This document shows, piece after piece, positions 28,250 to 50,226 of a DNA stretch of 64,000 nucleotides (position 1 is the first letter of the stretch; each line of letters begins with the position of its first letter). A model generated the notes under the pieces. That model was not told where the DNA came from. It made no database searches and saw nothing but the letters and a program-made list of their open reading frames with translations. Source of the DNA: Myxococcota bacterium (GTDB taxonomy: Bacteria > Myxococcota > XYA12-FULL-58-9 > JALHOP01); NCBI GenBank assembly GCA_041288095.1, contig JBGGMJ010000022.1, positions 21,754 to 85,753 of the forward strand, in the 5' to 3' direction. The position numbers were made by a program, and so were the translations under genes.

Positions 28250-29317
28250 ATGAGCGTGAGCGTAAGCACGGGACGCACGGGTGTGTCCGCGCCGGTCTTG
28301 GCCCTGTTGCCGGTAGCGCGGAACACCGCGGGAAATCAGGTCCTCGTCGCCCAGGCGTTGGCGCGTCGCGGCGTTCTCGATGGGCTCACGCGAGACCAGG
28401 CTCAGGTCGTCGTCGCCTTCACCGCCGAGAAGCTAGGGGCGCAGTTCGACGCCGAGCGCGACTTGAACGGGGGGCGCCTCGCGGAGCACGTCGCCGACAA
28501 GATCGTCGGCAAAGACGAGTTCGAGAAGGCGCAGAAGAAGTCGAATCGTAAGTCGTGGTGGGTCGCCGGCGGTTTCTTCGCGGGGGGCATGCTCGCCTCG
28601 GGCGCGCTGAATATCGGCGTCGACCTGGCCTTCAAGGCCATCAACCAGCCGTGGGCCGCGAGCGTCAACACCGCGCTGTCGCCCGCGCTCTTCGTGGTCA
28701 GCGCCGCGCTGGTCGGCGCCGTAACCGGTCTGTTCGTCGAGAAGCTGACGACGCCGGTCGCCGCCTGGTTCACGCGCCTGTCCTTCAAGGGCAGCCCCAT
28801 CAAGTCGCACCTCGACACCAAGCTGGGCGCGAGCTTGATCGATGCCTACAACGGCGCGAACCAGGTCGACGGTCGCGTCTTCTCGGCGGCGTCGACCCTG
28901 TCCTCGCTCATCGTCAACCTCGAAGGCACGCTTTCGGGCGACGGTGGGGTCCGCTCTCTCATCCGCCAGGCACGCGCCGGTGGTGCCGACAAGAAAGCGC
29001 TCTTGCAAGAAGCTGGTGAGCAGCTCGGCGGCAAGCTCATTCAAACCGAAGTGGCGCACTTCCACCTCGACCCGATGTTCACCGAGATCTTCCGGCTCGT
29101 GCACGCGAGCGTCGGCGGCATCTTCCGCAAGCTCGACCCGGCCGATCAGGACACGATCATCGAATCCGCTCTGGCGTACGTTCGTGAAGCGCGTCCGAAC
29201 GAACCGGATGGTCAGCGACCCGACACCGGCAAGGCCATCGAGACCTACTTCGCGCCGTTTCTCACCCGCTTGGTGAAGGGCGTGCCGAAGCCCACGGGTG
29301 GCGCCAGTGCAAGCTAG
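28250..29317 (+). CDS. hypothetical protein with a hydrophobic helical hairpin
   Basis: 355-aa ORF with typical codon usage; two Gly/Ala-rich hydrophobic segments; no Sec signal. Confidence 0.8.
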   Translation: MSVSVSTGRTGVSAPVLALLPVARNTAGNQVLVAQALARRGVLDGLTRDQAQVVVAFTAEKLGAQFDAERDLNGGRLAEHVADKIVGKDEFEKAQKKSNRKSWWVAGGFFAGGMLASGALNIGVDLAFKAINQPWAASVNTALSPALFVVSAALVGAVTGLFVEKLTTPVAAWFTRLSFKGSPIKSHLDTKLGASLIDAYNGANQVDGRVFSAASTLSSLIVNLEGTLSGDGGVRSLIRQARAGGADKKALLQEAGEQLGGKLIQTEVAHFHLDPMFTEIFRLVHASVGGIFRKLDPADQDTIIESALAYVREARPNEPDGQRPDTGKAIETYFAPFLTRLVKGVPKPTGGASAS

Positions 29318-31049
29318 CCGCGGCAACACCGCCGGGCGCTCTCTGTTCGCCCCGCCGACAGCGAACAATCTCCAGGGCGACGTCGAGGGCTCGATCGCGC
29401 GCGTGGTCGCCAAGCCCAAGGCGAGCCGTGCCCTCTGGGTGTCCGGCGCGGCCTGGTTGGGTGGCGCAGCGGCCGGCGGCGGCTTGAACCTCCTCGTCAG
29501 CAAGTTCTTGCCGACCTACGCCGGCGCCGCGCAGCCGATCATCAACATCAGCACCGACGTCTTGCAGTCGCCCGGCGCTCTCGCGCGCGAGACCATCACC
29601 AATCCGATCAGCGCCTGGATCTACGGCCTCGCGAATTCCGGCGCCGAGACCGCGCCGGCAGTCGAGTTCGGCCAAGCCATCGGTCCGCGTCTCGCCGGCC
29701 AACTCGTCGCCGTCCAGCAGGAGCGCGGCAAGATCGACTCGTGGGTCGTCGGTGAGATGGGCGAGTTCAACATCTACATGCAGTCGGTCGAGGCCGCCGC
29801 CCGTAAGGCCAAGGCCCGGCTCGCTTCCGGTGACATCGACGGCGCGGCGCGTGCCCTCGGCGCCGCCATGTGGTTCGACTGGGGCGTCTGGGGTGAGCTG
29901 AGCCCCGACACCAGCCCGCGCATGTTCGAGCTCATGTTCGCGAACGTCCACTCGCTCTTCAAGCGCGTCGCGCCCGAGGTGCGCATGAAGCTTCGCGAGG
30001 CGGTGAAGGCCGAGGCGCTGCGCTTGAACGGCGGCAAGGACGACGGCTTGGTGGTGTTCACCGAGATCGTCATGGCGGGTATCACGGAGAACGAGAAGCC
30101 GAAGGCGCTGCTCGCGCCCTGGCGCAACGACAAGGGCGCCGCTGGGAAAGTCGGCGAAGGCAAGCACGCGGACCCGGAGGCCTGGGTCTCGGACCTACTC
30201 AAACACTACTTCGACGACTACGTCCGCCAAAACGGATGGAAGAAGGGTCTCGCCGTCGCTCGCCTCCGGGAGAAGCTCACGCGCGCCGTCGTCAAGGACG
30301 TCACCGAGCTCGAAGCCGCGCGCGGCTACCCGGCCTCCGCGGACGACCTCTGGCGGATGACGCTGCACGCCTATCAGAAGTCGTCGGGCGAGGGCCTCGA
30401 GCTGCGCGCCGCGGGCCTCTCCCTCGCGGCCTACATCGTGGTCGGTGTCGCGGCGGCGTTCGGTAGCCAGGCTATCTCCAAGATCTCGCCCGACTGGTCG
30501 AAGGCCGGCATCAACTCCTTCGTGTTCACGATGTTCGGCTACCTGATGTTTTTCGGAAACTTCTTCACCAGCAAGATCTCCGCGCTGGGCTCGACCATCG
30601 GCTACGGCGGCGGCCAGAAGAAGTCGCTCGGCAAGGCCATCGAACGCGAGGTCCGCAATAGCACCCTACGTCTCAAGACCCGTGACGCGCGCGAAGACGT
30701 GATCCACGGCTACTTCACGACGTTCGCCCGCCAGCTCTCCATGCAGGCCAACGAGGTCGCCGCGGCGATCCGTGCCGGTGATCTTGACGACGCAGCCGCG
30801 GCCATCGCCGGCATCACCCTTGCGGGCAACGTCAGCAACCACAACTTCTGGCCCTATCTCGAGATGATGGAGCGTTTCTTCAAGCGCATTGGTCCGTACT
30901 TCGATGGCATGACCACGGCGCAGCGCGACGAGATCGTGACCAAGGCCGCGGAGATCCTGAAGAGTCAGGGCGTCACCGCCGAGCAACTCGAGGGCTACTA
31001 TCGGCCGTTCATGGTCGGGTTGCTGACCGAGAACGTGAAGCTCAGCTGA
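29298..31049 (+). CDS. hypothetical protein containing two copies of the domain found in 28250-29317
   Basis: 583-aa ORF overlapping the upstream gene; internal and inter-gene similarity visible by eye. Confidence 0.8.
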   Translation: MAPVQASRGNTAGRSLFAPPTANNLQGDVEGSIARVVAKPKASRALWVSGAAWLGGAAAGGGLNLLVSKFLPTYAGAAQPIINISTDVLQSPGALARETITNPISAWIYGLANSGAETAPAVEFGQAIGPRLAGQLVAVQQERGKIDSWVVGEMGEFNIYMQSVEAAARKAKARLASGDIDGAARALGAAMWFDWGVWGELSPDTSPRMFELMFANVHSLFKRVAPEVRMKLREAVKAEALRLNGGKDDGLVVFTEIVMAGITENEKPKALLAPWRNDKGAAGKVGEGKHADPEAWVSDLLKHYFDDYVRQNGWKKGLAVARLREKLTRAVVKDVTELEAARGYPASADDLWRMTLHAYQKSSGEGLELRAAGLSLAAYIVVGVAAAFGSQAISKISPDWSKAGINSFVFTMFGYLMFFGNFFTSKISALGSTIGYGGGQKKSLGKAIEREVRNSTLRLKTRDAREDVIHGYFTTFARQLSMQANEVAAAIRAGDLDDAAAAIAGITLAGNVSNHNFWPYLEMMERFFKRIGPYFDGMTTAQRDEIVTKAAEILKSQGVTAEQLEGYYRPFMVGLLTENVKLS

Positions 31050-39537: not shown

Positions 39538-40806
39538 TCAGCTCTTCGGATCGAGGATCCGCCCCACGAACAGCGCCTCGCCGTTCCTGGTGTCGCGGAT
39601 CACCACCATGAACGGGTGATCGGCGCGGAACTTCACCGGCTCGTCGGTCGGCCGGGCGGCTCCAGCCTCCATCATGACCGCTGTAGCGGCCGCCGCTTCG
39701 GTGCCTTTCTCGTCGACCGCGACGAAGGCCTGGTGCATGACCTTCGAGATGAAGAGCTCGTGGGTGCCGTCCATGCCCGAGAAGTCCGCGTCCGGGTATT
39801 TGAAGGCCCGCTTCATGCCCATGGCCTCGAGCACCTTCGCGAGCTCGAGTGACACCTTGGTCTTGAACGAGGGCATGGCGACATCGACGCGCCGGTGCTC
39901 GAGCCTCGCGAGCCAACCGTCGAAAGCCCCCGCGGCGAAGCGCTTCTCGACCTCGGCAAGCCCATCGCGCGCCGTGGGCAAGACGATGTCCATGGCGAGG
40001 GCGCCCTCACCATAGGGCATTTCGAGCATCAAGCCGTTGTCGATGCGGGCGACGCGAAAGCGGTCGAGCTGGTGCATCATCGGGACCTGCTTCGATCCGT
40101 CGGGAGCATGGAAAGCCTCCGGTCTCGTGGCCTGCGTTTCGAATTGCTTCGACCACTGGCCCTTGAAGTACACGGCGTTGGTGATCACGAGCTTGGTATC
40201 GGCGGGAATGGTGCCCGCGGGGATGAGCTCTTCGATCTTCTTCTCCGTCTGGTCACTCACCCACTTGTTGATGGCGACGCGGCTCGGCTCGACGGCACTC
40301 TTGAAATCGAGGGTCTCGAGCGGTGCGCCGTAGCGGTCCGTCAAGTTCGTCAAGAACGCCTCGTTGAAGGTGCGTCCCTTCTGACCCCAGAGGCGGTTCA
40401 CCACTCGCAAGACGATGCGGCGTCGCTCGAGCTCCGCTTCGGCGTACTTTTGCGTCTGCGGATCGTTCGACTGTGTCGCCCAGCTCGGCATTTGCGGGTC
40501 GGCGAGGGCCTTCCAGTCGGCGCGGAGCTTGGCGATGCCCGCCGCGGGATCGTCGCCCAAGCCGAGCACCTTCTTCATCTCGTCGGCGGTCTCGCCCACG
40601 GCACCGGCCTGCGCCATGGCCATCGCCATGCGGATGCTGGTCGGCGAGTAGAAGAGGTTACCCTTCTTGGTCATGAGCTCGCCGTGCAGGCGCGCGGTGA
40701 AATCGACTTTGTCGGGTGCCGAAGGCAACGCTGCTTTCTCGCGGGGTGCCGCCGAGGCGGTCGAATGGCCGAGCAGCAGCAAGATCGCCGAAAGCAGTCG
40801 TCGCAT
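39538..40806 (-). CDS. serpin family protein, secreted
   Basis: Signal peptide; NLFYSPTSI, INKWVS..T..KI, NAVYFKGQW, EKGTEAAAAT hinge and FRADHPF. Confidence 0.95.
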   Translation of the reverse strand: MRRLLSAILLLLGHSTASAAPREKAALPSAPDKVDFTARLHGELMTKKGNLFYSPTSIRMAMAMAQAGAVGETADEMKKVLGLGDDPAAGIAKLRADWKALADPQMPSWATQSNDPQTQKYAEAELERRRIVLRVVNRLWGQKGRTFNEAFLTNLTDRYGAPLETLDFKSAVEPSRVAINKWVSDQTEKKIEELIPAGTIPADTKLVITNAVYFKGQWSKQFETQATRPEAFHAPDGSKQVPMMHQLDRFRVARIDNGLMLEMPYGEGALAMDIVLPTARDGLAEVEKRFAAGAFDGWLARLEHRRVDVAMPSFKTKVSLELAKVLEAMGMKRAFKYPDADFSGMDGTHELFISKVMHQAFVAVDEKGTEAAAATAVMMEAGAARPTDEPVKFRADHPFMVVIRDTRNGEALFVGRILDPKS

Positions 40807-44125: not shown

Positions 44126-47100
44126 CTACGGACAAACCCCGAGCACGTCCGCTCCAGCGTCCGCCCCATCGAGTATCCGCGTCGCGCCGTCGATGTCGCG
44201 GATGTCAGCGATGCCAAGCTCGGCGGCCGTGATGTGGGTGACGCGTCCGGCTTGCGGTCCCAGCGGATCACCATGGATTGCGTCCGAACAAAACAGTGGC
44301 GGCTCCGGATAGTTGCCTTCGGCCGTCCCGGGAAACAATGCGTTGATGCCGCTCTCGTCGAGCGAGTCGTAGCTCTGCGGCGGTAGCACGTCGTCGTTCG
44401 ACGGGTCTTCGAAGCGCACCATGAGCGCCGAGAGGCTGCTCGGATTCTCGACGCCGTACACGTTATCCACCAAAGCGGTCACACCGAGCTCGGCGCCGGT
44501 GTTGGCATGCTCGACCACCAAAGGTGCCGCCCTGACGTCGCCGCCCCCGAAGCTTTGGTCGAAGACACCGAAGCCGTTCGCGAGCAGCAACAGCGGGTCG
44601 GCGTGGGCGACGTGCATCAAGTAGAAGCCGGTCGCGAAGGCTTGGTCGCAGCTCGACGCCGTACAACTCGCGACCCGCACGTTGTTGAAGGCGATGGTGG
44701 CGGCGGTGGTGAAGGCGAGGACACCGACGTTGGCGGCGCTCTGCTTCAAGTTGATGACGTTGTCGTCGATGACGGTGACCTTGTCGGCGGCTTGCGCGGT
44801 CGCGGTGTACTTGCCCGAGAGGCGCACGCCGACCGCCAGCGTGCTGGGTGCATCCACCGTCACGATGTTGCGCGCGACTCGGAGGCCGAGGGAGCCGAAC
44901 GTGGAGGCCCGCCGCGAACCGTCCTGGACGCCGATGAGTCGCACCGCCGAGCTCGGCGTTGCGTCTTCGACCCGAACCACGGAGTCGGCGAGGGTGACGT
45001 CACGCGTGAGCAGGGTGACGACGCCGGCCATGGTGGGGACGGGCTCGTTTTCGCTGGTGCCTAGCTGGCAAGCGACCGTGGTGCTGCTGATCTGAGCGGT
45101 GTCGGTACCGAACAAACCGATACAGGCGCGCAGTGGCACCTCTCCGACGTTGTTCACGGAGAGCACACCGGAGTAGCTGGCGTTGCTCACGCTGAGTAGC
45201 GTCGATCCGTAGCTGCCGCCTCCAGGAGCAGTCGCGATGTCATCGTTCGCGAGGTTCATCTGCCCGTCGATCAACGCCCCGGCGATCCACGCGGCGGCGA
45301 GATCGGCCATGCTCACCGAGCCGCCCGTGATGGCGACGCCCGTGGTGCGCATGAGACGCACACCCGCGATGCGGGCGACGGTCCAGCCGTTCACCGGCCG
45401 GACACCGGGCGCGGGCACGACGGTCACCATCACGTTGGTGACCTCGGCACGACGCGAGTCGCGCAGGACGACGCCCGCCGCTTCGCCCACGAAGTGGGTA
45501 CCCACCCTGACCGCGATGACGGCGTTGGCGAGCGATGCTCGGTACGAGCCGAGGCCGACGAGCGCGTTGGTGACGTCTGGCTGAGGTGTCTCGTAGCCGT
45601 CGCTCCAACCGGCGGCGAACGAGGCCGGCGCACCAGCGTTCGCGGACACCGTGACGTCGATGTTCAAGCCGTCGCAGCTCATGCCCGCGACGTCGTTGAC
45701 CGAGTTGCCGAGGTCCATGGTGAGCAGCCCGTAGGCCTGGCGGGCCGAAACAGTGAGCGTCGAGCGTTGGCTCACGCTGGGAGCGAGGAAAGCCACATGA
45801 CCCGTCCCAAGCGCCGCGACGCCGACGGCGAGGCGCGCTTTGGAGACGTTGATGGTGGTGCCGACGAGGGTCAGGCTCCCCGACGAGCCGCAGGTGGTGC
45901 CCGCCTCCGGTATGCAGCCGCCGAGGTCGAGGGTGCTGGCGTTGCCATCGGTGATCCCGAACGCAAGAGAGTCGGGGGCGCGTGCAAGGTCTGCGGTCTC
46001 GGCGTCGCTCCTCGCAATGATGGTCGAGCCCTGGATGCGGACGTCACCGGCGCGCAAGAGGCGGACACCCGTCACCGCGTGCGCACCTTCATTGATGGTC
46101 GTCCCCGACAGCACCGCGTTCATGCCGTTGAGCAGCGTCACGCCCACCGAAGCAAAGCCGGTGAGGGCGCCGCGGATGGATACGGCGTTGGTCGTAAGCA
46201 GCGGCCTGACATTGCCGTCGCCGCCGTTCGCGCGGACGCTATAGTAGACAGCACCGGCCGCCCCGGTGTTCACGGCGGAGCCAGTGCTCGGGCTGACGCC
46301 CAGATCCACGTTGGTGAGCGTGAGATTCGTCGCTGTCGCATCCACGAGCACGCATTCGCCGAGGCAGGGCACGACGCGGTAGACCGCGAGGTTTGCGAGC
46401 GTGACGGTGTCGCTCGGCGATGGCGCGGCGACCGCCACGCGTGGGTCGCTCCCCTGGCCGAGGGGCGCCGCCAAGGCGATCTCGCTACGCGCGGCCGGGG
46501 CTGGCGTCCCCCAGCTGATGGAGCCACGGGTATAGCCGCCGCGCACGGTGATGCTGCGGTCGATGAGCAGATCGCCGTCGAGCTGCTGCACGCCGACGGT
46601 CGCGAGACTCGCCTCGGCGAGCTGATAGTCCGCCGCCGCGAGCAAGGCGGCGCGCAGGTTGCAGAAGGGTAGCTCGGGCGTGCCTTGCGCGGCGTCGCTC
46701 GCCGCATCGTAGGTCGCTGCGCAGGGGGGCGCCGTGGAGACGTAGGCGCCGACGTCGCGGATGACGAGCCGCGCCGACGCCGAGCCCTCGCCGGTTCCGT
46801 CACTCACGGTGAGCGTGACCCCGCATTCGCCGCCGGCCGTGAGGTTGGATAGACGCAATTCGACCGCGTCGGTCGCGCCGACGACGCTGCCGGCACAGTC
46901 CGCTCCGACGGACCACGCATAGGTAAGCGGATCGAGATCCGCATCGACGGAGTCGGCCGCGCTGATGAGGACGGTGGTGCGCGCGCCGACACGCAGGTTG
47001 CCTTCACCATCGACACCGCGGATACGCGCGATTGGCGCCTCATTCGCGAGGCAAGCGTCGTCCTCGCAGGTATCACCCGCCTGAAAGCTGCAAGCAGTGG

Positions 47101-47143
47101 CCACCGCGCAAGCCACTGCGATCAGGCAACGCATGATCCGCAC
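44126..47143 (-). CDS. large lipoprotein with PKD/Ig-like N-terminus and probable parallel beta-helix
   Basis: ATA-C lipobox; APIA...DSVDADLDPLTYAWS; GTPELPFCNLRAAL; long Gly/Ala/Val/Thr beta-repeat region; DIDG.TR...DAGAD C-terminus. Confidence 0.7.
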   Translation of the reverse strand: MRIMRCLIAVACAVATACSFQAGDTCEDDACLANEAPIARIRGVDGEGNLRVGARTTVLISAADSVDADLDPLTYAWSVGADCAGSVVGATDAVELRLSNLTAGGECGVTLTVSDGTGEGSASARLVIRDVGAYVSTAPPCAATYDAASDAAQGTPELPFCNLRAALLAAADYQLAEASLATVGVQQLDGDLLIDRSITVRGGYTRGSISWGTPAPAARSEIALAAPLGQGSDPRVAVAAPSPSDTVTLANLAVYRVVPCLGECVLVDATATNLTLTNVDLGVSPSTGSAVNTGAAGAVYYSVRANGGDGNVRPLLTTNAVSIRGALTGFASVGVTLLNGMNAVLSGTTINEGAHAVTGVRLLRAGDVRIQGSTIIARSDAETADLARAPDSLAFGITDGNASTLDLGGCIPEAGTTCGSSGSLTLVGTTINVSKARLAVGVAALGTGHVAFLAPSVSQRSTLTVSARQAYGLLTMDLGNSVNDVAGMSCDGLNIDVTVSANAGAPASFAAGWSDGYETPQPDVTNALVGLGSYRASLANAVIAVRVGTHFVGEAAGVVLRDSRRAEVTNVMVTVVPAPGVRPVNGWTVARIAGVRLMRTTGVAITGGSVSMADLAAAWIAGALIDGQMNLANDDIATAPGGGSYGSTLLSVSNASYSGVLSVNNVGEVPLRACIGLFGTDTAQISSTTVACQLGTSENEPVPTMAGVVTLLTRDVTLADSVVRVEDATPSSAVRLIGVQDGSRRASTFGSLGLRVARNIVTVDAPSTLAVGVRLSGKYTATAQAADKVTVIDDNVINLKQSAANVGVLAFTTAATIAFNNVRVASCTASSCDQAFATGFYLMHVAHADPLLLLANGFGVFDQSFGGGDVRAAPLVVEHANTGAELGVTALVDNVYGVENPSSLSALMVRFEDPSNDDVLPPQSYDSLDESGINALFPGTAEGNYPEPPLFCSDAIHGDPLGPQAGRVTHITAAELGIADIRDIDGATRILDGADAGADVLGVCP

Positions 47144-47231: not shown

Positions 47232-48692
47232 TTACGCGGCGTCCTTCTTCTCGCGGTGGATGCGTGGCTTGAGGCTGCCCGCGAGGACGATGCGCTTGAT
47301 GCTGGCATCGTCAGGCACCGAGTGCACCAAGTCACGGAAGATCTTTTCGAAGATCGACGTGAGACCGCGGCCGCCCGTACCGCGCGCCATGCCGAGCTTC
47401 GCGAGCTCCTTGACGGCGCCCGGCTTGATCTCGAGCTCGACGCCTTCGAGCGCGAAGGTACCCTTGTATTGCTTGGCGAGCGCGTTGCGTGGCTCCGTGA
47501 TGATCTTCGCGAAATCGTCGAGGCTGAGGGGCATGAGGCCGGCGATCGCAGGGAAGCGTCCAACGAGCTCGCGCATCATGCCGAAGCGAACCAAGTCCAC
47601 CGGTTCGATGGATGAGTAGACCTCGCGCGCATCGACCTTGTTGCGCTCTTCGGCCGACTTGGGCTCACCACCGAAGCCAATCGAGGGTTTTGCGTCGACG
47701 TCTTCGGCTTGCTTGCGGGCCTTCCAGATGTCCTCGATGCCCGAGAAGGCACCGCCGGCGATGAACAAGACGTTGGTCGTGTCGAACTTGATGAACTCGC
47801 CATTGGGATGCTTGCGGCCGCCTCCCGGTGGCACGTTGAAGACACCGCCTTCGACCATCTTGAGCAGCATCTGCTGCACGCCGGCGCCGGAGACGTCGCG
47901 GGTGATCGAGGCGCTCTCGCCTTCGGGCTTACGCTTCTTGTCGAACTCGTCGATGAAGAGGATGCCGCGCTGGGCTTTCTCGACGTCGTTGTCCGCCGCG
48001 GCGATCAGCTTCAGGAGCATGCCTTCGACGTCTTCGCCGACGTAGCCGGCTTCGGTGTACGAGTTGGCGTCCACGATGTCGAAGGGCACGTCGAGGAGCT
48101 TCGCGATGCTGCGCGCGATGAGCGTCTTGCCGACACCGGTCGGGCCGATGAGGAGGATGTTCGCCTTCTCGAGGATGTCGTCGGGTACCGGCACGCCGCG
48201 CGCCTTGCAGTCATCGATCTGCGCGGTGCGCTTCAAGTGCTGATAGACCGCGTTCGCGACCACCTTCTTCGCGAGCGCCTGTCCCCAGACGTACTGGTCG
48301 AGGTGCTTGACGATCTGCGACGGCGTCGGGATGTCGGCGAGCAGCGGGTTGCGCGAGATCGGCAACGGTTGGATCGAGGCGACCTGGCCGGCGAGCAGAG
48401 GGTGGAGCACCATGCCGTTGAAGCGGCTGGCGTCAGCGCCCGCTTTAGCGTTCAGCTCTTCGACGGCGCTCAGGGTCTTGAGGAAGGTCTCGGGTCCGTG
48501 GGCGTGAACCGCGCCGCGAACCGCATCCAATGCGTCCTTGAAGGCTTCGACGTTGGGGTGGCCTTCGGCGCCCTTCAACACGGTCTCGAGCTCGGTTTGG
48601 TTCGCCGGCGCCTTTTCGGGGACCAACGAGCCCTTTCTGAGGGCGAGGTACGCTTCACTACCAACAAGAGGAAGAATGCCAAAACTGCTCAA
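47232..48692 (-). CDS. clpX: ClpX-like AAA+ ATPase lacking the C4 zinc-binding domain, with a novel N-terminal domain
   Basis: LDQYVWGQ, GPTGVGKT, GYVGEDVE, IDEFDK, RDVSG.GVQQ.LLK, RKHP and IGF loop; TTG 48692 with GGAGG RBS; no CxxC pairs in the N-terminus. Confidence 0.9.
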   Translation of the reverse strand: MSSFGILPLVGSEAYLALRKGSLVPEKAPANQTELETVLKGAEGHPNVEAFKDALDAVRGAVHAHGPETFLKTLSAVEELNAKAGADASRFNGMVLHPLLAGQVASIQPLPISRNPLLADIPTPSQIVKHLDQYVWGQALAKKVVANAVYQHLKRTAQIDDCKARGVPVPDDILEKANILLIGPTGVGKTLIARSIAKLLDVPFDIVDANSYTEAGYVGEDVEGMLLKLIAAADNDVEKAQRGILFIDEFDKKRKPEGESASITRDVSGAGVQQMLLKMVEGGVFNVPPGGGRKHPNGEFIKFDTTNVLFIAGGAFSGIEDIWKARKQAEDVDAKPSIGFGGEPKSAEERNKVDAREVYSSIEPVDLVRFGMMRELVGRFPAIAGLMPLSLDDFAKIITEPRNALAKQYKGTFALEGVELEIKPGAVKELAKLGMARGTGGRGLTSIFEKIFRDLVHSVPDDASIKRIVLAGSLKPRIHREKKDAA

Positions 48693-48728
48693 AACAGCCT
48701 CCAAATCGCTGCCATGTCGTCAGTTTTC

Positions 48729-48754
48729 CTATCGGCACGATTTTTCGGAGGTTG
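48729..48754 (-). promoter_or_regulatory. candidate sigma-28-like promoter for the clpX-like gene
   Basis: Minus strand CAAC-N14-GCCGATAG. Confidence 0.7.
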
Positions 48755-48794
48755 TGTGCTGGACCCAAGATTTATTGATCTGATGGCACTTCAT

Positions 48795-48820: not shown

Positions 48821-48879
48821 GAAGGGCGGGGGCGGGTCGGTGGGGCGCGCCGGTGGGATTCCGTGGTATGCCTTTTCAT

Positions 48880-50226
48880 ATGACGGTATCGCGTGTTCCC
48901 CCGGGGCAGCCGGGGGCGGCCTCGTCGACGCGGGAATCCACGCCCACCCGGGAGCATCCGGCCGGGCCCGCCATGCAAACCGGCAATGTCGAGGCTGGCT
49001 CGAAGGCCGGCACTCTGAGCTTGCCGGGTGGCAAGACCGTCCTGATGTGCGTGGTCGATGCCGATGGCGCGCCGACCGTTCATCGCGCCGGCGCCGAGTC
49101 GGAGTCCGCTGTGGCGGGCGATGCCGGTCTCAAGACCTTCAAGGTCGCCGACATTCTGCGGCCGGGCTTGCCGCTCACGCCCTACGGCATGCACACCTTC
49201 GACGCCCTCCATGGTCCGATATCGCCCGCGGCGACCACGGCGCTCCACGTGCTGCACGCGACGCTCGCGGGGGCACTCCCGGGCGCTGTTTCCCAGGACC
49301 TGACCCATCGCAACCGCTTGGCCGCCGCGGTCTACACGCTGGCGCGGCAATACGCCGCGCTGGCCAAGGCCATCAACTTCGAGAGTGCTTCGTCCGCCGC
49401 ACGGGCTCGGGCCCTGGTGGTCGAGGCGGCGCAGGTTCTCGACGCGCTCGGCTCGCAGCTCTCCCGTAACTCGATGTTCGCCCTGCTCGACACGGCACAA
49501 TACGCCGTCTTGTCCGCCATGGCGAACAGACCATCCGTCGTCACGAAAGCAGTCGAGACGCTCGTCGACCTGACCGCGACGCGGTTCTCGCAGACCGCCG
49601 GCTGGCTCGGCGGAGCGCGAGGCGAAAGCTGGGAGAGCCAGGAGCGCACGCGTGCCTACGAGAACTTCAACGGGCCGCTCCACTTCGTGAGCGCCTACCG
49701 GCGCAATCAACACTATCCCTTCGACGAGCTGCCGCTCGGGGCGCTTGCGTTTCTCGGTACCGAGGCGGGTCCGACCCTGAAACAGGGCATCGTCGACTTC
49801 GTCCTCAAGGCCGACAAGGGTCTCGGGCTGCTCATCGAGCTGCACGCAGCGCGCTTCATCTCGGGAAAACCCGCGGGCGAGGCAAAACCGCCGATGGGAG
49901 CTCAGGGTGACCTGGAGCGCCTGCTCGTCGGCTTGGCGCACTTCAAGCGCGACGACAGCACCGGCTATTCGGCGGCGCGCGCCTTCGCGCAGACCGCGGC
50001 GATCTACGATGCGGTACTCGAGAAGGCGGAGTCACCCGCGATGCATCGCCTGGTCACCGACTGCGCCCTGACCGCTCTCGACCTGTATGCCCATGGCAAG
50101 GTCCGCTCGGCCGAAGCCGACGAGGCAGCGCGGGAGCTCGTCGCGCGCCTGAGAAGGCGCGGCCCCGATGAGATCACGAACGCGCGTATCGGCCGGCTCC
50201 TTACCGCGCGCGCTCAGGCCCGCTAA
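48880..50226 (+). CDS. hypothetical protein, low-complexity N-terminus and helical body
   Basis: Long ORF with typical codon usage; start uncertain (48853/48868/48880). Confidence 0.75.
   Translation: MTVSRVPPGQPGAASSTRESTPTREHPAGPAMQTGNVEAGSKAGTLSLPGGKTVLMCVVDADGAPTVHRAGAESESAVAGDAGLKTFKVADILRPGLPLTPYGMHTFDALHGPISPAATTALHVLHATLAGALPGAVSQDLTHRNRLAAAVYTLARQYAALAKAINFESASSAARARALVVEAAQVLDALGSQLSRNSMFALLDTAQYAVLSAMANRPSVVTKAVETLVDLTATRFSQTAGWLGGARGESWESQERTRAYENFNGPLHFVSAYRRNQHYPFDELPLGALAFLGTEAGPTLKQGIVDFVLKADKGLGLLIELHAARFISGKPAGEAKPPMGAQGDLERLLVGLAHFKRDDSTGYSAARAFAQTAAIYDAVLEKAESPAMHRLVTDCALTALDLYAHGKVRSAEADEAARELVARLRRRGPDEITNARIGRLLTARAQAR

Follow-up and report, generated by a model that had tools for sequence, protein, structure and literature searches.

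Most of the specificity of ClpXP is generally attributed to the zinc-binding domain of ClpX and to adaptors, and in canonical ClpX (models TIGR00382 and NF003745; structures solved for E. coli, N. meningitidis and others) this domain docks adaptors and some substrates. A ClpX without the N-domain has been described in M. xanthus, ClpX3 (MXAN_2743), which is also reported to have no RKH motif. According to the same article, its gene is dispensable but required for growth at 36 °C, its expression rises in stationary phase, and N-domain swaps between the ClpX paralogues of M. xanthus change phenotypes (PMC11423568). Our literature search found no description of another ClpX with an alternative N-domain.

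We analysed a clpX-like gene in a window of 64,000 nucleotides (the whole stretch of DNA under study), located on contig C22 of a Myxococcota metagenome-assembled genome of 5.85 Mb, 212 contigs and ~90% completeness. The gene has its closest described counterpart in clpX3, which in M. xanthus stands beside clpP1-clpX1 and clpX2; it resembles clpX3 in being an isolated accessory copy whose product has no cysteine-bearing N-domain, as far as the article describes ClpX3 (PMC11423568). Compared with ClpX3 as described there, the clpX-like protein differs in carrying a 120-residue N-terminal extension and an intact RKH motif (PMC11423568). An earlier annotation made from the DNA alone, hereafter the sequence-only reading, had taken the arrangement to be unprecedented; this view has to be given up in light of the N-domain-less ClpX3 described in that article (PMC11423568) and of further zinc-finger-less ClpX-like genes in the phylum and in the same genome.

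The open reading frame spans 47232..48704 on the minus strand. We take the gene to be 47232..48692 (-), because the three full-length relatives begin with MSS or MSV at the aligned position of the TTG at 48692, because neither this TTG nor the GGAGG at 48698-48702 varies among the three genomes with the gene, and because the earlier TTG at 48704 is CTG in one of them, G001. On the same grounds, the start at 48692 given in the sequence-only reading was the better choice. All copies have an open frame and conserved translation signals, and the neighbouring genes share the third-position GC of 0.85. When the three genomes are compared in pairs, the N-terminal bundle has a dN/dS of 0.24-0.33, the linker one of 0.14-0.19 and the AAA+ part one of 0.18-0.31; these values are rough because dS, at 0.6-2.2, is near saturation. 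Since the orthologues share the same TTG and dN/dS is 0.14-0.33, the alignments indicate that the N-terminal part is real, constrained coding sequence. By the same comparisons, the gene is kept by purifying selection in one genus. An eight-codon upstream reading frame (ATG...TGA; 48689-48715, minus strand), whose stop overlaps the TTG start, is present in the window and in G001; it is probably non-functional, since its start is ACG in G002. The features of the locus are collected in Table 1.

Table 1. Features of the clpX-like locus, in window coordinates.
Feature	Position	Strand	Basis and remarks
clpX-like CDS	47232..48692	-	486 aa + stop, TTG start; open reading frame, ClpX equivalog models above cut-off, start by orthologues and Shine-Dalgarno box
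GGAGG Shine-Dalgarno box	48698..48702	-	5 nt before the TTG start; invariant in 3 genomes
Four-helix bundle (predicted), residues 9-88	48429..48668	-	AF2 models; dN/dS 0.24-0.33
Linker, residues 89-120	48333..48428	-	Low predicted order; sequence conserved; dN/dS 0.14-0.19
ClpX AAA+ module, large and small domains, residues 121-486	47235..48332	-	Aligns to solved ClpX; pLDDT mostly 86-97
Walker A, GPTGVGKT	48123..48146	-	Translation; K189 invariant
Pore-1 loop, GYVG	48036..48047	-	Translation and alignment to solved ClpX
Walker B, ILFIDE	47946..47963	-	Translation; D248, E249 invariant
RKH loop	47808..47816	-	Translation and alignment to solved ClpX
IGF loop tripeptide (ClpP-docking element of canonical ClpX)	47673..47681	-	Translation; G339, F340 invariant
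Conserved upstream block (GTGCCA.CAGATCAATAAAT, CACAAC, TCGTGCCGATAGG), probable promoter or operator	48729..48789	-	3-genome alignment
Downstream lipoprotein gene, 1005 aa predicted, weak PKD match	44126..47143	-	88 nt away; syntenic neighbour, putative partner only

The clpX-like protein exceeds both ClpX cut-offs, with 413.7 bits on NF003745 (cut-off 359) and 401.5 bits on TIGR00382 (cut-off 370.75). The matches cover no more than positions 57-395 and 62-402 of the respective profiles, and the zinc-finger part is therefore missing. Its Pfam matches are AAA_2, AAA and ClpB_D2-small; zf-C4_ClpX gave no Pfam match at E<=0.1, and no CxxC pair precedes Walker A. The absence of the CxxC...CxxC N-domain remarked upon in the sequence-only reading is borne out by the lack of a zf-C4_ClpX match and by profile positions 1-56, which remain unmatched. 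HslU, the sister AAA+ family, has the N-terminal half of the module in common with the clpX-like protein, which lacks the I-domain and stays below the cut-off of the HslU model TIGR00390 (174.9 bits vs 362.45); the genome encodes its own HslU on C146.

The AAA+ module aligns with solved ClpX chains over their residues ~63 to ~400 (E 1e-100) without large gaps, placing GYVGED, DEFDK, GGRKHP and SIGFGG opposite their counterparts. By translation, and in the numbering of the 486-aa protein, the motifs are GPTGVGKT (183-190), GYVG (216-219), DEFDK (248-252), RKH (293-295), IGF (338-340), GRFP (378-381) and GGRGL (440-444). In an alignment of 34 sequences, comprising the clpX-like protein, four near relatives and 29 zinc-finger-bearing canonical ClpX, residues K189, Y217, D248, E249, R293, G339, F340, R379 and R442 are invariant, and the catalytic set is complete, with the Walker A lysine, the Walker B DE, the arginine finger and the sensor-2 arginine. 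Translation, alignment to solved chains and invariance thus agree with the intact Walker A/B, GYVG, RKH and IGF elements that had been read from the DNA. In summary, the protein has the whole AAA+ module in common with canonical ClpX (45-53% identity over ~124-477); it differs in having a bundle and linker in place of the C4 zinc domain, in lying outside a tig-clpP-clpX-lon cluster, in short stretches inserted ahead of Walker A and near the IGF loop, in a much faster evolution, and in a probable branching outside the canonical clade.

AF2 modelling of residues 1-120, a check proposed in the sequence-only reading, predicted a four-helix bundle followed by an unstructured linker, with helices at residues 9-20, 32-43, 48-65 and 67-91. 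Modelled alone (3 sequences), the N-terminal region had four helices over residues 9-91 with a pLDDT of ~81-88, and residues 88-120 were disordered. The full-length model (34 sequences; mean pLDDT 81) contained the same bundle at residues 10-88 with a pLDDT of 80-91, together with a confident AAA+ module and a linker of low confidence, mostly with a pLDDT <50, in which one short helix was placed. The orthologues keep the linker motif HPLLAGQVAxIQPL...RNPLLA. A new N-terminus does replace the zinc domain, as had been proposed, but what had been described as a ~120-aa domain is predicted to be a helical bundle of ~80 aa with a linker of ~32 aa. Prediction of a two-copy complex of residues 1-95 gave a score of 0.01 against a mark of 0.42, which is to be read neither as support for self-association of the bundle nor as an argument against it.

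A profile HMM of the three N-domains, searched against 1.84 billion cluster representatives, gave two matches at E<=0.001, namely the family's own representative P0003 and the repeat protein P0122. The latter, of 2399 aa, matches profile positions 1-30 in seven stretches that add up to 50.9 bits; its recurring motif LPxGGxGSLEYVWLxSDTLVPN resembles N-domain residues ~7-30, and it is the sole outside match. We take P0122 to be probably a chance match through a short motif. Foldseek against the PDB returned 0 matches for the bundle at E<=0.001, the best Z among 48,161 chains in VIA-align was 5.6, which is below the tool's own noise level for helical bundles, and the ESM Atlas held no usable match by features, with all structure rows at TM < 0.5. 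As the profile, Foldseek, VIA-align and ESM Atlas searches yielded no recognisable relative or ligand site, a role of the bundle in selection is proposed by analogy only. Within the genome, tblastn of the N-domain found the clpX-like gene itself and no second copy; comparison by hhalign with the N-termini of 11 further ClpX-type proteins stayed at probabilities <= 2.6%, and BLASTP against the N-terminus of the ClpX-like protein on C149 gave no match.

Turning to the other Clp genes, ClpX1 is encoded on C38 between clpP and lon, downstream of tig, while the second canonical clpX, encoding ClpX2, is on C77 and a second clpP on C62. None of tig, clpP, clpX1 and lon is on C22, in keeping with the sequence-only reading, which had noted the lack of tig, clpP and lon nearby. 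The same reading had proposed a search for a second, canonical clpX: two zinc-finger-bearing copies were found, one of them in tig-clpP-clpX-lon, and the clpX-like gene is not the only clpX of the genome. With two ClpP and two canonical ClpX at hand, a clpX-like gene is surplus to housekeeping needs. ClpX1 and ClpX2 carry CxxC...CxxC, and the other three ClpX-type proteins do not.

The two remaining zinc-finger-less genes are on C149 (~28751-30190; L004 1165-2604, plus strand) and on C186 (L005 1423-2583, minus strand). They share with the C22 gene a ClpX-like AAA+ core, an IGF-type tripeptide, the absence of CxxC pairs and a location away from clpP; they differ from it in scoring below the ClpX cut-off, in having no RKH and in N-termini unrelated to its own. 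The C149 protein (479 aa, 290 bits) has a SIGFGG loop and its own N-terminus of ~125 aa, for which no genome but its own gave a match beyond weak ones in G005 and G007; the distance to a lon gene is ~4 kb. In the C186 protein (386 aa, 169 bits) the motifs read TGYIG and RIGFG; it belongs to a very divergent clade that is almost unchanged in G001 and G002 and also occurs in other genomes of the order and phylum. Four lon genes exceed the Lon equivalog cut-off (C38, C64, C100 and C149); with two clpP and five ClpX-type genes, this makes an unusually large set of ATP-dependent protease genes for one genome.

Full-length relatives of the clpX-like protein are few. Of 8000 candidates scored out of 5.8 billion proteins, P0002, P0003 and P0004 alone aligned over the full length (72-73% identity by BLASTP); P0005 is the window's own protein truncated by a contig end. 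The motor is also present in P0006 (453 aa, 50% identity), whose N-terminus is different and rich in proline and alanine. Among the matches listed, the other rows carry the zinc-finger Pfam family, with the exception of P0106. P0002, P0004 and P0006 are proteins of G001, G002 and G003. In 41 genomes of the genus, order and phylum, its own included, full-length matches occurred only in G000, G001 and G002, and G003, which belongs to the same genus and is 84% complete, has the P0006 form instead. By sequence comparison, the full-length orthologues are thus limited to two genomes of the same genus and one metagenome protein. The N-terminus is confined to one genus, which does not fit a housekeeping form general among relatives, the possibility raised in the sequence-only reading.

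The order serpin, 2OG oxygenase, modA, lipoprotein, clpX-like gene is kept in G001 and G002. In the window, the lipoprotein gene is followed by genes for a ModA-like binding protein, a 2OG oxygenase and a serpin, and the far side holds a 457-aa protein, an ArsR regulator and an RND efflux pair. The serpin (39538-40806, minus strand) is a full-length bacterial one (Pfam Serpin, E 1e-104), with 79-85% identity in G001 and G002. The 457-aa protein is encoded at 48853-50226 on the plus strand, in a reading frame that points away from the clpX-like gene, and matches neither a Pfam nor a PADLOC family; G002 has a copy of 59% identity, and the 19 kb of G001 that were compared contained none. In G003, the reading frames surrounding P0006 look by eye like guaB and guaA. 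We considered a defence system and a mobile element and rejected both: the clpX-like protein and its two neighbours have no PADLOC family match beyond weak generic AAA+ hits (IetA at 33 bits and lower), and the GC profile is flat at 0.66-0.67, equal to the surroundings.

We also carried out the phylogeny suggested in the sequence-only reading. In a tree of 55 AAA+ rows, the four orthologues and P0006 form one clade (SH-aLRT 97-98), which lies outside the clade of all 38 canonical ClpX (SH-aLRT 86). The other zinc-finger-less lineages sit on long branches, and the tree supports no particular order between them and the orthologue clade; the clade is not joined to L069/L070, short forms without the zinc finger from other genomes of the phylum. 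End branches within the orthologue clade measure 0.06-0.15 vs 0-0.02 for ClpX1 of the same genomes, about ten times longer within one genus, and some properties of the clpX-like protein may therefore have drifted. In an AU test on 43 rows, from which 12 long-branch rows had been dropped, grouping with the ClpX1 and ClpX2 of Myxococcota was not rejected (p 0.172). On the tree position and this p value, the gene may have arisen by duplication inside the phylum followed by acceleration, or by transfer.

We consider it rather probable that the gene encodes an accessory, ClpP-docking AAA+ unfoldase of the ClpX family, with its own selection of substrates or adaptor, working beside the two canonical ClpX. 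As suggested by its motifs, the protein would form an ATP-driven hexamer that grips polypeptides through the GYVG and RKH pore loops, and its IGF loops would dock it on one of the cell's two ClpP, into which unfolded substrates would be fed. In place of the zinc-binding domain stands a lineage-private bundle of four predicted helices, held on the conserved linker as a tether, and this bundle may pick its own adaptor or a distinct and probably small group of substrates. From a private helical bundle in the place of the zinc domain we infer a different set of substrates or adaptors. The sequence-only reading had described the gene as a paralogue with altered substrate selection; the paralogue is supported by the two canonical clpX and by an N-terminus restricted to one genus, while the altered selection is to be read as an expectation.

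The IGF tripeptide alone is not proof of ClpP binding, and canonical ClpX itself takes apart the MuA complex. A less probable explanation is a chaperone or remodeller that works independently of ClpP on a particular complex, with an IGF loop that is retained but unused. It would agree with a gene that no clpP adjoins, with a fast-evolving clade that the 55-row tree puts outside canonical ClpX, and with an IGF-loop region that is 6-8 residues longer than in solved ClpX. On the other hand, the IGF and its flanking glycines are present in all four orthologues, with MGF in P0006, G339 and F340 are invariant when compared with canonical ClpX, and two ClpP are available in the cell. These observations speak against a ClpP-independent role, which we regard as unlikely.

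The region upstream of the gene is conserved over ~110 nt in the three genomes, and the block at 48729..48789 is, by this conservation, a probable promoter or operator. Its GCCGATAG box (48729-48736) is invariant in the three genomes and resembles the sigma-28 -10 box. The sequence-only reading had assigned the gene its own sigma-28-like promoter. This assignment is not supported: 15 nt upstream of GCCGATAG stands ACAA, not TAAA, and no protein of the genome reaches the cut-off of the FliA model TIGR02479 (best 166.4 vs 189.6). A sigma-70 consensus scan gave 0 sites. Four sequencing runs with DNA of this genome are listed, from three soil or cave metagenome studies, two of the four runs with small shares, and none of the listed runs is an RNA run.

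On the downstream side, the clpX-like gene could be co-transcribed and functionally coupled with the gene of the 1005-aa lipoprotein, for example in controlling its precursor or a regulator. Both genes are on the same strand with a gap of 80-88 nt, their adjacency is kept in G001 and G002, and the gap contains no minus-strand terminator-like site and no significant RNA fold (z -0.31). However, G003 has the lipoprotein-modA pair without a clpX-like gene at the syntenic place, the conserved 3' part of the gap could be the lipoprotein gene's own promoter, and the lipoprotein is exported while ClpX is cytoplasmic. We hold coupling to be quite improbable. Each of the three other genomes of the genus has an orthologue of the lipoprotein (53-71% identity), and G001 and G002 also have a paralogue of 36-37% identity.

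Still somewhat less probable is a redundant duplicate in drift, whose N-terminal region would have no role of its own. The narrow distribution, with four sequences in one genus, would be expected of such a duplicate, as would the contrast between orthologues that are only 72-75% identical and a ClpX1 that is nearly identical across the same genomes. Against drift, dN/dS is well <1 for bundle, linker and AAA+ part alike, no catalytic motif is damaged, and the open frame and the translation signals are conserved in all copies. Finally, an exported effector that docks on a foreign ClpP, as the sequence-only reading had imagined and for which only the intact IGF loop speaks, is very improbable, as we see by eye no signal peptide, genes for secretion systems or toxin immunity are absent from the nine neighbours scanned, the protein matches no family of defence proteins or effectors, and the base composition (0.66-0.67 GC) is that of the surroundings.

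The gene may also stand for something broader, although we consider this doubtful: an undescribed class of Clp unfoldase in which a ClpX motor has had its zinc finger swapped for a helical bundle, either de novo or diverged beyond tracing, that recruits a private set of adaptors or substrates to ClpP, as one of up to five ClpX-type motors in this one myxobacterial genome, each with a different head. Its value is limited for now, the organism being an uncultured soil myxobacterium and the family consisting of four known members. If true, the lineage would be a natural experiment in the re-targeting of ClpXP by N-domain swapping. A ClpX under selection that keeps all its motor and ClpP-docking elements under another head would show that the motor can be re-aimed by domain exchange, and its N-domain would offer a compact, orthogonal recognition module. 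For the biology of the group, the gene adds to the picture of myxobacteria as organisms with several ClpX and Lon paralogues for development and stress.
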